Shown one piece after another: positions 18,400-32,311 of a stretch of 64,000 nt of DNA. Position 1 is the stretch's first letter; each line of letters opens with the position of its first letter. The stretch lies in NCBI RefSeq assembly GCF_044647545.1, contig NZ_CP172818.1. One strand, given 5' to 3'. The stretch is from Escherichia coli. Its GTDB lineage: Bacteria; Pseudomonadota; Gammaproteobacteria; Enterobacterales; Enterobacteriaceae. A program made the translations under genes and the position numbers. The notes under the pieces were generated by a model, which had not been told where the DNA came from, made no database searches, and worked only from the letters and a program-made list of their open reading frames with translations.

Positions 18400-19938
18400 T
18401 CACCCAACGCCTTTCGCTGTAAACGGCGGTTTCGCAAACCAAACCAAAACCGTAAGTAAGATAAAAGCAATAGCCGCCATACGGAAAATCTCATTTGCAG
18501 AAATAGAAAGTGACTGCTGGGTTATTTCATTATTAATTTCATTAAGAACTCCTGAAAGCGAACCATAGTATTTATCCATAATTTGTGACGATGAATTAAA
18601 CACGGGGTTAAATTGATCGATGGTTGCTGTCAACTGACTATGGTGTAACGATTCGCGGCGTCCCCACAGTGTCATTGTCAACGACGTACCAACTGATCCT
18701 GACAAGGTGCGAAAAAAATTACTCATACTCGAGGCATTGGCAAATTTATTATCTGGCAAGCCTGAAAACGAAATCGTTGTTAAGGGTAAAAAGAAACAGG
18801 CAACGGCGAATCCCTGGAAAAACTGTGGCAAAATGATGCCTGTAAAATCAATCGTTGGCATAAATGTCACAGAACGCCAGTAATAGCAAACCGCATACAT
18901 CAAAAAACTAAATGTCACCAACAACCGCATATCTATTTTGTTGCCATAACGCCCTATCAAAGGTGATATTAATAGCGGCATGATACCGATGGGCGCATAG
19001 GCAAGTCCGGCCCATATCGCATTATACCCCATCGTTTCCTGGAGTAACTGCGGCATAAGGACGATCGCTCCAGAGTAAAATAAATACGCGCATGTGATAC
19101 TCACAATACCAATGGTGAAATTACGGGACTTAAACAAACTGAGATCAAGAATCGGGTTCTCTGAGGTCGACTCCCAAATGACTAAAGAGATCAGAGAAAT
19201 AACTGATACTACTGTTAATATTATTATTGTACTCGAGTTGAACCAATCCAGATCGCGCCCTTTATCAAGCATAATTTGCAAGCCACCAACACCGAGCACT
19301 AACAGGGTCAGTCCTGGTAGATTCATTTTGACCGGTGAAGTCTCAGTTTCTCGTCCTTTAAGTAAGGTTAAGCATAATGTCAGGACGATAATCCCCATAG
19401 GGACATTGATTAAAAATATCCAACCCCAGCTAAAGTTATCACAAATATAACCGCCCAATATCGGCCCACATATCGGCGCGATAATCACGGTCATAGACCA
19501 TAATGCCAGAGCAAATGTTCTTTTTTCTGGTGGATAATTCCTTAATAATAAACTCTGTGACAGTGGAATTAACGGCCCCGCCATTAATCCCTGAACGACT
19601 CTAAAAAATATCAGCACATCAAGATTGGTCGATAAACTACACATTAAGGAAGACAGCGAAAAAAAAGTGACTGAAAGTAAAAATAACCTTAATTCGCCTA
19701 TTCTTTGTGCCAGCCTGCCGGTAACAGGGATCGCAATGGCATTTGCTACGCCAAACGAAGTGATAACCCAGGTGCCTTCGTCTGTTGATGCTCCCAGAAA
19801 GCCAGATATTGTCGGTATTGCGACGTTAGAAATAGTGGAATCCAACATTTGCATAAACGTCGCTAATGACAATGCAATAGTAACGCACCATAACGTCCCA
19901 CCGGTTAATGGTGCCGGAGTTGATTTAGTGATTGCCAT
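18400..19938 (-). CDS. emrY: MFS multidrug efflux transporter EmrY (EmrB paralog)
   Basis: 512 aa, 14-TMS MFS-type; start overlaps emrK stop. Confidence 0.9.
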   Translation of the reverse strand: MAITKSTPAPLTGGTLWCVTIALSLATFMQMLDSTISNVAIPTISGFLGASTDEGTWVITSFGVANAIAIPVTGRLAQRIGELRLFLLSVTFFSLSSLMCSLSTNLDVLIFFRVVQGLMAGPLIPLSQSLLLRNYPPEKRTFALALWSMTVIIAPICGPILGGYICDNFSWGWIFLINVPMGIIVLTLCLTLLKGRETETSPVKMNLPGLTLLVLGVGGLQIMLDKGRDLDWFNSSTIIILTVVSVISLISLVIWESTSENPILDLSLFKSRNFTIGIVSITCAYLFYSGAIVLMPQLLQETMGYNAIWAGLAYAPIGIMPLLISPLIGRYGNKIDMRLLVTFSFLMYAVCYYWRSVTFMPTIDFTGIILPQFFQGFAVACFFLPLTTISFSGLPDNKFANASSMSNFFRTLSGSVGTSLTMTLWGRRESLHHSQLTATIDQFNPVFNSSSQIMDKYYGSLSGVLNEINNEITQQSLSISANEIFRMAAIAFILLTVLVWFAKPPFTAKGVG

Positions 19939-21101
19939 TAAAGTTGTCCATTATGCGAAATAATGTTGCTAATTTCTTTTTCTATCGGACTGGTATCGAT
20001 AATTAAAGCCTTACTGGTATAAGCAGGCATGGACGTCACGGTTGAAGCCAGATCGGGCATATCGGCAATGTCTTCGTTCCTGGTATCAATAGTTGCAGTC
20101 ATCGATAAACCAATGCGCAAGGGATGTTCCATGAGTTCTTTTGGATCAAGAGAAACCTCAACCGGTACACGCTGAACGATTTTGATCCAATTCCCTGTCG
20201 CATTTTGTGCAGGTAATAAGGAGAACGCATTGCCGGTTCCCATATTGATCCCTGTCACCCGACCATGAAACACAACATTTTCACCATAAAGATCGCTAAT
20301 AATATTGACCGATTGACCAATCCGCACATCCGTGAGTTGTGTTTCTTTAAAGTTGGCATTAACCCACATTTGACGTGCCGGTACGACAGCCATTAACGAT
20401 TGTCCGGGACTCACTGTTTCGCCGACCTGAACACTTCGCTGGGCAATATAGCCGGTAACCGGACTCTTAATATCCGTACGTTTAAGCGCCAACCAGGCTT
20501 CTTTGGTTGCATCCGCCGCTTCAACGACTTGTGGCTGACGGTTTAATGGTGTGTTCATTACTAAAGCTTTATTCGCTTTATAAGCCTGAATAGCAGCATT
20601 CAATGCCGCTTTGCTACTTATTAACGTATCTTTGGTATGCTCCAGCGTTTCTTTTGAAATAACCCCCTGCTTCGCTAAAGGTACACGACGGTTATAATCT
20701 TCTAAAGATTGTTGATACTGAATACGAGCTGAAGCGACTTCGGCACTGTATTGTTTATCCTGTAAGTACAGTTTATTCGTTTGCCGAACAATATTGGCCA
20801 GATTATTTTTAGCTTTATTGAGTGCGATAGTGGCATCAGTCTTATCCAGTGAGACTAAAATGTCACCCTGTCGAACGTAGTTCGTATCTTTATGATTAAC
20901 GACAGTGACGCTGCCTGAAACTTGTGCAGAAATTGGATCTGCATTTCCCGTGACATAGGCGTCATCTGTACTAATCATGTCTTCTAATTCCATTGACCAA
21001 TAGGCATAGGCACCTGAAAACGCAATAAATAAAACTACCGCTAACAAAGCAAAATATTTTTTTCTGTCAGAATGTTTTTTATTTGAATTAATCTGTTCCA
21101 C
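19938..21101 (-). CDS. emrK: Membrane fusion protein EmrK (EmrA paralog)
   Basis: 387 aa, single N-terminal TM then coiled-coil/HlyD-like periplasmic domain. Confidence 0.9.
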   Translation of the reverse strand: MEQINSNKKHSDRKKYFALLAVVLFIAFSGAYAYWSMELEDMISTDDAYVTGNADPISAQVSGSVTVVNHKDTNYVRQGDILVSLDKTDATIALNKAKNNLANIVRQTNKLYLQDKQYSAEVASARIQYQQSLEDYNRRVPLAKQGVISKETLEHTKDTLISSKAALNAAIQAYKANKALVMNTPLNRQPQVVEAADATKEAWLALKRTDIKSPVTGYIAQRSVQVGETVSPGQSLMAVVPARQMWVNANFKETQLTDVRIGQSVNIISDLYGENVVFHGRVTGINMGTGNAFSLLPAQNATGNWIKIVQRVPVEVSLDPKELMEHPLRIGLSMTATIDTRNEDIADMPDLASTVTSMPAYTSKALIIDTSPIEKEISNIISHNGQL

Positions 21102-21274
21102 TTTTATCTCTCATTTCGCATAGATGAAATTTATGAATTGAATGAAAAGAGAATTCATTCTTCATATCAAACACAGTGCATGTGTTGCACATTATCCCAG
21201 GAACGTTGGAGGCCTAATTTAAATGAGGTGCAAAAAAAACAACAGAGGACTAAACCGTGGCTTTTGCAATACAA

Positions 21275-21303
21275 TTCTTACGCCTGTAGGATTAGTGAGA
21301 AGA
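21275..21303. promoter_or_regulatory. Candidate EvgA box in the emrK-evgA divergent promoter region
   Basis: TTCTTACGCCTGTAGGATTAGTGAGAAGA contains TTCYTAC / TGTARGA-like half-sites matching the EvgA inverted-repeat consensus. Confidence 0.45.
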
Positions 21304-21515
21304 CTTATAGTGCTAATGTGAAACTATAAATCATCGGTACAATCCCTGATTTTATTGTTGACATTTCATATATGCCGACTATTTATATGGTATACTTGTC
21401 GAATTATCTTAAAGGAAGCTCAAATTTTCTTATTTTTTTGAGAAAATGAGATGATGCCTTATGTCTGTATTACTACAGGGAGAAGGGAAATGCTTCATTG
21501 CAAAGGGAATAATCT

Positions 21516-22130
21516 ATGAACGCAATAATTATTGATGACCATCCTCTTGCTATCGCAGCAATTCGTAATTTATTGATCAAAAACGATATTGAAATCTTAG
21601 CAGAGTTGACTGAAGGCGGAAGTGCCGTTCAGCGGGTGGAAACACTTAAGCCTGATATCGTCATCATTGATGTCGATATCCCCGGAGTTAACGGTATCCA
21701 GGTGTTAGAAACGCTGAGGAAGCGCCAATATAGCGGAATTATTATTATCGTCTCCGCTAAAAATGACCATTTTTACGGGAAACATTGTGCTGATGCTGGC
21801 GCTAATGGTTTCGTGAGTAAAAAAGAAGGCATGAACAATATCATTGCGGCTATTGAAGCTGCAAAAAATGGCTACTGCTATTTCCCTTTCTCTCTCAACC
21901 GGTTTGTTGGAAGTTTAACGTCCGACCAGCAAAAACTCGACTCCTTATCGAAACAAGAAATTAGTGTCATGCGGTATATTCTTGATGGCAAGGATAATAA
22001 TGACATTGCTGAAAAAATGTTCATCAGCAACAAAACTGTCAGCACGTATAAAAGTCGCTTGATGGAAAAATTAGAATGCAAATCACTGATGGATCTTTAC
22101 ACATTCGCACAACGTAACAAAATCGGCTAA
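21516..22130 (+). CDS. evgA: Response regulator EvgA (NarL/FixJ family)
   Basis: 204 aa; receiver domain (IIIDDHP...D52-like) plus C-terminal LuxR-type HTH. Confidence 0.92.
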   Translation: MNAIIIDDHPLAIAAIRNLLIKNDIEILAELTEGGSAVQRVETLKPDIVIIDVDIPGVNGIQVLETLRKRQYSGIIIIVSAKNDHFYGKHCADAGANGFVSKKEGMNNIIAAIEAAKNGYCYFPFSLNRFVGSLTSDQQKLDSLSKQEISVMRYILDGKDNNDIAEKMFISNKTVSTYKSRLMEKLECKSLMDLYTFAQRNKIG

Positions 22131-22134
22131 CCAC

Positions 22135-25100
22135 ATGAAGTTTTTACCCTATATTTTTCTTCTCTGTTGTGGTCTTTGGTCGACCATAAGTTTCGCAGAC
22201 GGAGATTACATCGAATATCGTGGCATCAGTAGTAACAACCGTGTCACACTTGATCCACTACGTCTGAGCAACAAGGAATTACGTTGGCTCGCGAGCAAAA
22301 AAAATCTTGTGATTGCAGTACACAAGTCCCAAACAGCTACGTTGTTGCATACCGATTCGCAGCAACGGATTCGTGGTATTAATGCTGATTATTTAAATCT
22401 TTTAAAAAGAGCGTTAAATATCAAATTAACACTCCGGGAATACGCAGATCATCAAAAAGCAATGGACGCGCTGGAAGACGGTGAAGTTGATATAGTGTTA
22501 TCACATTTAGTTGCTTCGCCGCCTCTTAATGATGACATTGCTGCAACTAATCCTCTGATAATTACCTTTCCTGCGTTGGTCACTACCCTTCACGATTCAA
22601 TGCGACCGCTTACCTCATCAAAACCAGTAAATATTGCTCGAGTAGCAAATTATCCCCCAGACGAGGTAATTCATCAATCATTTCCAAAAGCAACAATTAT
22701 CTCTTTTACAAATTTATATCAGGCATTAGCATCCGTCTCAGCCGGACAGAATGATTACTTTATTGGTAGTAACATCATTACCAGCAGTATGATTTCCCGT
22801 TATTTTACTCACTCCTTAAATGTAGTGAAGTATTATAACTCACCGCGTCAATATAACTTTTTATTAACCAGAAAAGATTCAATCGTTCTTAATGAAGTAC
22901 TCAATCGATTTGTTGATGCTTTAACAAATGAAGTTCGCTATGAAGTATCACAAAATTGGCTTGATACAGGAAACCTGGCCTTTCTGAACAAACCATTAGA
23001 ACTCACTGAACATGAAAAACAGTGGATTAAGCAGCATCCCGATTTAAAGGTGCTAGAAAATCCTTACTCGCCACCCTATTCTATGACAGATGAAACTGGC
23101 TCAGTTCGGGGCGTGATGGGTGATATTCTTAATATTATTACCTTGCAAACAGGTTTAAATTTTTCTCCGATCACCGTTTCACACAATATTCATGCTGGGA
23201 CACAGCTTAACCCCGGTGGATGGGATATATTGCCCGCCGCTATTTATAGTGAAGATCGAGAAAATAATGTTTCATTTGCTGAAGCTTTCATAACAACGCC
23301 TTACGTTTTTGTCATGCAAAAAGCGCCTGACAGTGAACAAACATTAAAAAAAGGAATGAAAGTTGCCATTCCATATTATTATGAGCTTCATTCGCAATTA
23401 AAAGAGATGTATCCGGAGGTAGAGTGGATAAAAGTCGATAACGCCAGCGCTGCATTTCACAAGGTCAAGGAAGGTGAACTTGATGCTCTGGTCGCGACAC
23501 AGTTAAATTCGCGTTACATGATCGACCATTACTATCCTAATGAACTTTATCATTTTCTTATTCCCGGCGTTCAGAATGCATCACTTTCGTTCGCTTTTCC
23601 TCGCGGAGAACCGGAACTTAAGGATATTATTAATAAAGCACTGAATGCAATTCCCCCAAGCGAAGTTCTGCGCCTGACGGAAAAATGGATTAAAATGCCC
23701 AATGTGACCATTGACACATGGGACCTCTATAGCGAGCAATTTTATATTGTCACGACATTATCCGTTTTATTAGTTGGCAGTAGCCTTTTATGGGGATTCT
23801 ACCTGTTACGCTCAGTTCGTCGTCGTAAAGTCATTCAGGGTGATTTAGAAAACCAAATATCATTCCGAAAAGCACTCTCGGATTCCTTACCGAATCCAAC
23901 TTATGTTGTAAACTGGCAAGGTAATGTCATTAGTCATAATAGTGCTTTTGAACATTATTTCACTGCGGATTACTACAAAAATGCAATGTTACCATTAGAA
24001 AACAGTGACTCACCCTTTAAAGATGTTTTTTCTAATGCGCATGAAGTCACAGCAGAAACGAAAGAAAATCGAACAATATACACACAGGTATTTGAAATTG
24101 ATAATGGCATCGAGAAAAGATGCATTAATCACTGGCATACATTATGCAATCTGCCAGCAAGCGAACATGCTGTTTATATTTGTGGTTGGCAAGATATTAC
24201 CGAGACGCGTGATTTAATTCATGCACTCGAAGTAGAGAGAAATAAAGCGATCAATGCAACTGTCGCAAAAAGTCAGTTTCTGGCAACAATGAGTCACGAA
24301 ATAAGAACACCAATAAGCTCCATTATGGGCTTCCTGGAACTTCTGTCGGGTTCTGGTCTTAGCAAGGAGCAACGGGTGGAGGCGATTTCACTTGCCTACG
24401 CCACCGGACAATCACTCCTCGGCTTAATTGGTGAAATCCTTGATGTCGACAAAATTGAGTCGGGTAACTATCAACTTCAACCACAATGGGTCGATATCCC
24501 TACTTTAGTCCAGAACACTTGTCACTCTTTCGGTGCGATTGCTGCAAGCAAATCCATCGCATTAAGTTGCAGCAGTACGTTTCCTGAACGCTACCTGGTT
24601 AAGATCGACCCTCAGGCGTTTAAGCAGGTCTTATCTAATTTACTGAGTAATGCTCTCAAATTTACTACCGAGGGAGCAGTAAAAATTACGACCTCCCTGG
24701 GTCACATTGATGACAACCACGCTGTTATCAAAATGACGATTATGGATTCTGGAAGTGGATTATCGCAGGAAGAACAACAACAACTGTTTAAACGCTATAG
24801 CCAAACAAGTGCAGGTCGTCAGCAAACAGGTTCTGGTTTAGGCTTAATGATCTGCAAAGAATTAATAAAAAACATGCAGGGCGATTTGTCATTAGAAAGT
24901 CATCCAGGCATAGGAACGATATTTACGATCACAATCCCGGTAGAAATTACCCAACAAGTGGCGGCTATAGAGACAAAAGCAGAACAACCTATCACACTAC
25001 CTGAAAAGTTGAGCATATTAATCGCGGATGATCATCCGACCAACAGGCTATTACTCAAACGCCAGCTAAATCTATTAGGATATGATGTTGATGAAGCCAC

Positions 25101-25728
25101 TGATGGTGTGCAAGCGCTACACAAAATCAGTATGCAACATTATGATCTGCTTATTACTGACGTAAATATGCCGAATATGGATGGTTTTGAGTTGACTCGC
25201 AAACTCCGTGAGCAAAATTCTTCCTTACCCATCTGGGGGCTTACAGCCAACGCACAGGCTAACGAACGTGAAAAAGGGTTAAATTGCGGCATGAACTTAT
25301 GTTTGTTCAAACCGTTGACTCTGGATGTACTGAAAACACATTTAAGTCAGTTACACCAGGTTGCGCATATTGCACCTCAGTATCGCCACCTTGATATCGA
25401 GGCCCTGAAAAATAATACGGCGAACGATCTACAACTGATGCAGGAGATTCTCATGACTTTCCAGCATGAAACGCATAAAGATCTACCCGCTGCGTTTCAT
25501 GCACTAGAAGCTGGCGATAACAGAACTTTCCATCAGTGTATTCATCGCATCCACGGTGCGGCTAACATCCTGAATTTGCAAAAGTTGATTAATATTAGCC
25601 ATCAGTTAGAAATAACACCTGTTTCAGATGACAGTAAGCCTGAAATTCTTCAGTTGCTGAACTCTGTAAAAGAACACATTGCAGAGCTGGACCAGGAGAT
25701 TACTGCTTTCTGTCAGCAAAATGACTAA
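22135..25728 (+). CDS. evgS: Hybrid sensor histidine kinase EvgS (BvgS-like)
   Basis: 1197 aa; two periplasmic solute-binding-like domains, TM, HisKA (MSHEIRTP), HATPase, receiver and HPt domains. Confidence 0.92.
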   Translation: MKFLPYIFLLCCGLWSTISFADGDYIEYRGISSNNRVTLDPLRLSNKELRWLASKKNLVIAVHKSQTATLLHTDSQQRIRGINADYLNLLKRALNIKLTLREYADHQKAMDALEDGEVDIVLSHLVASPPLNDDIAATNPLIITFPALVTTLHDSMRPLTSSKPVNIARVANYPPDEVIHQSFPKATIISFTNLYQALASVSAGQNDYFIGSNIITSSMISRYFTHSLNVVKYYNSPRQYNFLLTRKDSIVLNEVLNRFVDALTNEVRYEVSQNWLDTGNLAFLNKPLELTEHEKQWIKQHPDLKVLENPYSPPYSMTDETGSVRGVMGDILNIITLQTGLNFSPITVSHNIHAGTQLNPGGWDILPAAIYSEDRENNVSFAEAFITTPYVFVMQKAPDSEQTLKKGMKVAIPYYYELHSQLKEMYPEVEWIKVDNASAAFHKVKEGELDALVATQLNSRYMIDHYYPNELYHFLIPGVQNASLSFAFPRGEPELKDIINKALNAIPPSEVLRLTEKWIKMPNVTIDTWDLYSEQFYIVTTLSVLLVGSSLLWGFYLLRSVRRRKVIQGDLENQISFRKALSDSLPNPTYVVNWQGNVISHNSAFEHYFTADYYKNAMLPLENSDSPFKDVFSNAHEVTAETKENRTIYTQVFEIDNGIEKRCINHWHTLCNLPASEHAVYICGWQDITETRDLIHALEVERNKAINATVAKSQFLATMSHEIRTPISSIMGFLELLSGSGLSKEQRVEAISLAYATGQSLLGLIGEILDVDKIESGNYQLQPQWVDIPTLVQNTCHSFGAIAASKSIALSCSSTFPERYLVKIDPQAFKQVLSNLLSNALKFTTEGAVKITTSLGHIDDNHAVIKMTIMDSGSGLSQEEQQQLFKRYSQTSAGRQQTGSGLGLMICKELIKNMQGDLSLESHPGIGTIFTITIPVEITQQVAAIETKAEQPITLPEKLSILIADDHPTNRLLLKRQLNLLGYDVDEATDGVQALHKISMQHYDLLITDVNMPNMDGFELTRKLREQNSSLPIWGLTANAQANEREKGLNCGMNLCLFKPLTLDVLKTHLSQLHQVAHIAPQYRHLDIEALKNNTANDLQLMQEILMTFQHETHKDLPAAFHALEAGDNRTFHQCIHRIHGAANILNLQKLINISHQLEITPVSDDSKPEILQLLNSVKEHIAELDQEITAFCQQND

Positions 25729-31264: not shown

Positions 31265-31282
31265 TTCTTACAACTGTAAGAA
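31265..31282. promoter_or_regulatory. Near-perfect EvgA box upstream of frc
   Basis: TTCTTACAACTGTAAGAA: 18-bp inverted repeat matching the TTCYTACA-N2-TGTARGAA EvgA consensus, about 250 bp upstream of the frc start. Confidence 0.6.
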
Positions 31283-32158: not shown

Positions 32159-32256
32159 ACTTACCTCATTCTTTAACAGTTTTAGAAAACACCGCCATCA
32201 TATTGGGTGAGCATGAAATGAGAAATCAGAGAGCAACGGTCATTTTGAAAGGGTTA

Positions 32257-32311
32257 TCTTACAGTTGTAGTTATTATCGCAAGAAGTATTTTAGTCTTAC
32301 AATTGTAGGAA
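32257..32311. promoter_or_regulatory. Two EvgA-box-like repeats in the yfdX promoter
   Basis: TCTTACAGTTGTAG (32257-32270) and TCTTACAATTGTAGGAA (32295-32311), about 100-150 bp upstream of the yfdX start. Confidence 0.55.

Follow-up and report, generated by a model that had tools for sequence, protein, structure and literature searches.

The 414-bp spacer between the divergent emrK(Y) and evgL-evgA-evgS operons of E. coli (21102-21515) raises the question of which bases EvgA recognizes there and which of the two operons it controls from them. The first-pass annotation of this locus had placed an EvgA-box-like motif in a 29-mer, TTCTTACGCCTGTAGGATTAGTGAGAAGA, at 21275-21303, and had ascribed to it both the activation of emrKY and the autoregulation of evgAS. 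From the analysis of a 64-kb window (the whole stretch of DNA that was analysed, to which the coordinates refer unless another reference is given), we consider it likely, with a probability of about 0.85, that 21275-21292 is an operator for the neighbour-encoded EvgA, a regulator of the NarL/LuxR family, and that it activates the leftward emrKY promoter.

The emrK-evgA locus

The spacer is bordered by the following genes, leader and promoter.

18400-19938, minus strand: emrY, 512-aa ORF, downstream of emrK
19938..21101, minus strand: emrK, first gene of emrKY, 387-aa ORF (ORF list and RefSeq annotation)
21391..21403, plus strand: evgA promoter, with the -10 element TATACT (21391-21396) behind TGg and the start at 21403 (K-12 2483641)
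21490..21519, plus strand: evgL leader ORF (MLHCKGNNL), overlapping the evgA ATG with its stop codon (K-12 b4781; PMC11210196; identity to K-12)
21516-22130, plus strand: evgA, 204-aa ORF, response regulator
22135-25728, plus strand: evgS, 1197-aa ORF (RefSeq annotation); evgA and evgS together span 21516..25728

In the RefSeq annotation of identical E. coli DNA, the flanking genes are emrK/emrY and evgA/evgS. The EvgA product carries the Response_reg and GerE (LuxR-type helix-turn-helix) domains (Pfam), and the EvgA chains of PDB entries 5F64, 8ZWN and 3F6C are identical or near-identical to the 204-aa product. Given the flanking annotation, the domains and the PDB identity, the assignment to the emrK-evgA locus is correct, and the position of the motif within the divergent spacer, as annotated in the first pass, is confirmed by the window sequence together with the RefSeq annotation.

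An 801-bp query across the spacer (20900-21700) matched 5,398 of the 5,426 complete E. coli genomes, and 20 of the matching places fall on plasmid-labelled records. A degenerate scan of the genome contigs for the 5'-pattern of evgA returned four loci only, with none from E. albertii or E. fergusonii. Contig NZ_JAEUAT010000078.1 (398 bp, labelled 'Rhizobium cauense') carries the coding sequence for EvgA residues 1-114, which match E. coli EvgA exactly, and is almost certainly E. coli contamination of that assembly.

The transcription start of evgA was placed at 21403 by mapping the leader figures of PMC11210196 (a leader of 114 nt, with the evgL ATG at +89) onto the K-12 and window sequences. 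The same paper mentions a second (sigma-70) evgA promoter, and reports that evgL couples evgA translation under CsrA control. On the other side of the spacer, a plus-strand transcription start was mapped at ~20903 inside emrK, antisense to the gene, 613 nt upstream of the evgA ATG and behind TATGAT (Kim et al. 2012), and a strong RpoS-holoenzyme SELEX peak lies in emrK adjoining evgA (Shimada 2017). A transcript starting at ~20903 would traverse the EvgA box.

An 18-bp inverted repeat as the probable operator unit

The EvgA motif is reportedly an 18-bp inverted repeat, TTCYTACA-NN-TGTARGAA, described by Masuda and Church in 2003, who are also said to have found EvgA boxes upstream of ydeP, safA(b1500)-ydeO, yegR, yfdX, yfdW(frc)UVE and emrKY/evgAS. 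A full-text literature search for the consensus string or for 'EvgA box' found no paper quoting the sequence. The consensus is a real recurring motif, as its recurrence at EvgA targets demonstrates. Searched at up to 3 mismatches, it has 4 matches in the 64-kb window against 0.54 expected from shuffles, a count reached by none of 100 shuffles. Besides the match in the emrK-evgA spacer, the other three lie upstream of frc and yfdX.

31265-31282, unstranded: EvgA box, perfect consensus TTCTTACAACTGTAAGAA, 250 bp upstream of frc (yfdW)
32294-32311, unstranded: EvgA box with 1 mismatch, in the yfdX-ypdI spacer
32256-32273, unstranded: EvgA box with 3 mismatches, in the yfdX-ypdI spacer

In K-12, the consensus additionally gives one strong site each upstream of safA, ydeP and yegR. 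The presence of the frc and yfdX boxes in the same window agrees with what has been published on the control of yfdX and yfdWUVE by EvgA, which binds inverted repeats there (PMC3720670). The operons marked by the consensus are those that PMC3720670 and PMC4283999 name as direct EvgA targets, and every directly regulated gene has an EvgA binding site according to the latter.

Within the emrK-evgA spacer, the match resolves into the following elements.

21275..21292, unstranded: EvgA box, TTCTTACG-CC-TGTAGGAT, 8-2-8 inverted repeat (K-12 NC_000913.3 2483513-2483530)
21275..21282, plus strand: left half-site TTCTTACG, emrK-proximal, 7/8 to TTCYTACA, 8.4 bits, second best in the spacer
21285..21292, minus strand: right half-site ATCCTACA, 7/8, 10.0 bits by the half-site matrix, top in the spacer
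21294..21301, minus strand: putative weak third half-site-like element TTCTCACT (TTCTTACT in K-12), 5.6 bits

The 18-mer at 21275-21292 has 2 mismatches to the consensus, TTCYTACANNTGTARGAA, a G at position 8 and a T at position 18 of the box. Its arms are self-complementary at only 5/8, and the box was for this reason not reported by a repeat finder. The last 11 bp of the 29-mer (21293-21303) contain only the weak third half-site, which has no counterpart at the other five EvgA-target boxes when the promoters are aligned on them. The real unit is the first 18 bp and not the 29-mer: of the extent proposed in the first pass, 21275-21292 stands, and the remaining 11 bp are reduced to a weak, polymorphic third half-site.

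For an independent score, we derived a symmetrised weight matrix from five EvgA-target sites, leaving out the one in the emrK-evgA spacer. By this matrix, the box scores 18.3 bits, ranking third in the 64-kb window and best among the matches outside the training set, while the next match away from EvgA targets has 13.0 bits. In 5 Mb of Markov-1 random sequence, 2 matches reached the score of the box, and ~2e-4 equally good matches are expected per 414-bp spacer. The weight-matrix scan that the first-pass annotation had called for thus bears out its description of the motif as EvgA-box-like. A second full-site match at 21427-21444 was dismissed, as its 9.3 bits correspond to background (~217 matches at >=10 bits per 5 Mb). 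Consensus-independent k-mer sharing among the six upstream regions of EvgA targets was dominated by AT-rich words and uninformative.

Since half-sites within the NarL/LuxR family look alike, the site might instead belong to, or be shared with, another regulator of this family, such as RcsB, GadE or NarL. Part of the box and its right flank, TAGGATTA (21287-21294), has what we take by eye to be a resemblance to part of the RcsAB box, and this would favour such a regulator. The 18-bp pattern, however, is specific to the six upstream regions of operons under direct EvgA control, with the next non-target matches of the 64-kb window at 13 bits or below. Furthermore, EcoCyc, as cited in PMC8174306, gives emrKY and ydeP no common regulator except EvgA, and the induction of emrKY is reported to be lost in an evgA deletion, with no rescue by other regulators (PMC6393483, PMC5706723). 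We therefore regard a site for another family member as very unlikely, and treat 21275-21292 as an EvgA operator in what follows.

Promoter geometry and probable activation of emrKY

The operon activated by the box is most likely emrKY. According to PMC9496106 and PMC8174306, which cite Kato 2000 for it, EvgA regulates emrKY directly and binds its promoter region. In addition, the induction of PemrK reporters by acid or evgS1 requires EvgA and EvgS (PMC5706723, PMC6393483). The activation of emrKY assigned to this motif in the first pass is supported by both lines of evidence.

The emrK start codon follows 173 bp downstream of the box. We aligned the six EvgA-target promoters (emrK, safA, ydeP, yegR, frc and yfdX) on their boxes, oriented toward the regulated gene, and found several bases at fixed offsets on the target side: CA at +9/+10, TC at +26/+27 and T at +31, each in all six promoters, and A at +30 and T at +32, each in five of them. 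Because safA/ydeP and frc/yfdX look paralogous, each pair was counted as one lineage, leaving four lineages, in which the best 7-column block has a shuffle P of ~2e-4 (it exceeds all but 0.02% of shuffles). The distal side of the six aligned boxes shows nothing comparable to these target-side elements. The fixed geometry is a criterion derived in this analysis rather than a published definition, and by it the emrK side of the box belongs with the safA, ydeP, yegR, frc and yfdX boxes. This arrangement looks like a weak core promoter common to the six EvgA targets, which at emrK would consist of the following elements.

21265..21270, minus strand: candidate -35-like hexamer ATTGCA of the emrK promoter, +5..+10 after the box, including the CA at +9/+10 (6/6)
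21246-21241, minus strand: candidate weak -10 element TCTGTT, within the conserved block 21241..21249
21241..21249, minus strand: conserved block in the GTCCTCTGTT region, which runs from +25; +26..+34 after the box, invariant in the sampled E. coli

The candidate -10 element is poor and does not have the conserved A at position 2, and the start-site table of Kim 2012 contains no emrK start. A generic sigma-70 site at 21378-21349 (minus strand) was the sole match in the region, fewer than in shuffles, and lies upstream of the box; we regard it as uninformative.

On this layout, activation of emrKY could proceed as follows. The EvgS kinase would be activated by mild acid, high K+/Na+ and aerobic growth, and the phosphorylated EvgA dimer would then bind the 8-2-8 repeat, presumably with one helix-turn-helix per half-site. 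The bound EvgA would in turn activate leftward transcription from the emrKY promoter. The weak core elements of this promoter appear to lie directly downstream of the box, the -35-like hexamer 4 bp and the weak -10 element ~28 bp from it. Transcription of emrK would then start near 21234, which would put the box centre near -50.

Conservation of the box and its flanks

The 18-mer is invariant in the 11 sampled E. coli spacers, which are 95.6-100% identical. On a larger scale, 5,397 of the 5,426 complete E. coli genomes gave a match, in 5,417 matching records; 4889 of these hold an exact copy of a 34-mer that includes the box, and 374 others have C replaced by A at 21284, which belongs to the unspecified central dinucleotide. 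The box is thus unchanged, or changed only in the central NN, in at least 5263 of the 5417 records (~97%), leaving out the remaining ~154. It lies within 21259-21296, the second-longest invariant run of the spacer.

The divergent Escherichia strain SCPM-O-B-8794 is more informative. At the same distance from evgA, it has a perfect consensus, TTCTTACACCTGTAGGAA (24.9 bits), in which consensus bases replace both off-consensus bases of the box. Once this strain joins the alignment, ~19% of the spacer columns are variable. The region next to the box is less constant: position 21297 is G or A among E. coli, as is 21302 just outside the third half-site, and the outer GTGAGAA arm reads GTAAGAA in K-12 and ATGAGAA in the divergent lineage. 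The K-12-like A at 21297 creates a perfect outer repeat, TTCTTAC-N13-GTAAGAA.

Two strains have rearranged spacers. In NCTC10444, only 21338-21515 of the spacer was matched, so the emrK side including the box appears to be deleted or rearranged. In MS6198, an IS1 insertion adds 777 bp with a 9-bp duplication of CTATAAATC (21324-21332), 32 bp from the right-hand end of the box.

These data bear on whether the resemblance to the consensus is a chance one and has no function. The two mismatches and the weak self-complementarity of the arms would fit such a reading, as would the conservation within the species, which alone is not significant (P ~0.26), given that ~93% of the spacer is invariant. 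Against it, so good a match is scarcely expected in a spacer of this length (see above), the site falls exactly in the promoter region of an EvgA-dependent operon, the divergent lineage has both mismatches shifted to the consensus, and the downstream geometry is common to the other EvgA targets. We consider a chance resemblance extremely improbable, and retain 21275-21292 as the likely EvgA operator of emrKY.

Proposed autoregulation of evgAS

The box could also act as a shared bidirectional operator that mediates positive autoregulation of evgAS, which we regard as possible but doubtful. In its favour, Masuda and Church reportedly counted evgAS in 2003 among the directly regulated operons. 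The shared spacer has no strong EvgA site besides the box, and the kvgA-like genes of Klebsiella and Buttiauxella retain an identical related 18-mer upstream of themselves (see below). Moreover, Table 1 of PMC3219618 enters EvgA as a regulator of itself with one site, and PMC11210196 describes it as 'reported to be autoregulatory', with Tanabe 1998 and Eguchi 2003 given as the basis.

However, several observations on the evgA side point the other way. First, the mapped evgA start (21403) is 119.5 bp downstream of the centre of the box. Second, the evgA side does not have the fixed-offset elements of the six EvgA-activated promoters, and nowhere is the spacer more variable than at the matching positions on that side, 21314-21318. 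Third, the IS1 copy of strain MS6198 lies between the box and the evgA promoter, with the emrK side undisturbed. Finally, three papers describe no rise of evgA or EvgS: EvgS levels were constant and the operon was 'not autoregulated' (PMC8174306), evgA fusions were unresponsive to acid (PMC11210196), and macrophages, in which emrK is induced, gave no induction of evgA (PMC6393483). Because of the -119.5 distance, the evgA side without the shared elements and the absence of an evgA or EvgS rise on activation, the autoregulation of evgAS that the first-pass annotation had proposed is left in doubt.

For activation of emrKY through the 18-bp operator, the target-side bases suggest a speculative and rather unlikely extension: TCYKATT (+26..+32) and CA (+9/+10), present on the target side only, may form an extended signature of all six promoters that sets the direction in which the box fires, and the G/A variation at 21297 could also tune EvgA occupancy between lineages. 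If true, such a signature would explain why emrKY responds to EvgS activation and evgAS does not.

Comparison with known systems

Through this site, the EvgS/EvgA acid-sensing phosphorelay is connected to the EmrKY multidrug/bile efflux pump, as had already been established in E. coli and Shigella. The regulon is well studied and the site is already known in it, so that it is nothing new in kind. What the present analysis refines is the extent of the operator, an 18-mer instead of a 29-mer, its apparent wiring to emrK rather than to evgA, and the presence of the frc and yfdX boxes in the same window.

The emrK-evgA box is like the other E. coli EvgA boxes in its 8-2-8 layout, its half-site TTCYTACA, the EvgA-dependent operon it precedes and its spacing to promoter-like elements. 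Compared with the other primary EvgA boxes, it is the weakest (18.3 bits versus 21-26), with no difference in kind, and it is the only one of them that lies between two divergent operons.

Outside E. coli, the nearest comparison is BvgA of Bordetella, an EvgA homologue of the NarL/FixJ family that is governed by an unorthodox phosphorelay kinase, binds a primary site of inverted heptads and spreads cooperatively over secondary sites towards the -35 element. The emrK-evgA box resembles BvgA sites in having a NarL/FixJ-family regulator, an unorthodox phosphorelay kinase and a primary site that is an inverted repeat and precedes the activated promoter. Unlike BvgA sites, it has no array of secondary sites, only the weak half-site, which is on the side away from emrK. 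It also shares with the LuxR lux box and the NarL 7-2-7 site a GerE/LuxR-type dimer and an inverted repeat of ~16-20 bp that adjoins or covers the -35 region. Its half-sites differ from theirs in sequence, and whereas the lux box is centred at -42.5, the emrK-evgA box would be centred further upstream, near -50.

Meanwhile, an identical 18-mer, TTCCTACAGCTGTCATCC, occurs upstream of the kvgA-like genes of Klebsiella pneumoniae ATCC 13883 and Buttiauxella sp. B2. The two copies (L006 203-220, in reverse orientation, and L007 4244-4261) lie 161 and 287 bp from the ATG, and the Klebsiella and Buttiauxella spacers around them are otherwise unalignable. Judged from these sequences, the 18-mer is probably a KvgA operator composed of one EvgA-type half-site and a different half. 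This putative KvgA-type site shares with the emrK-evgA box the half-site TTCCTACA, the 8-2-8 frame and the place upstream of an evgA homologue, and differs from it in its second half, which is TGTCATCC instead of TGTARGAA and gives the site 13.5-13.8 bits.
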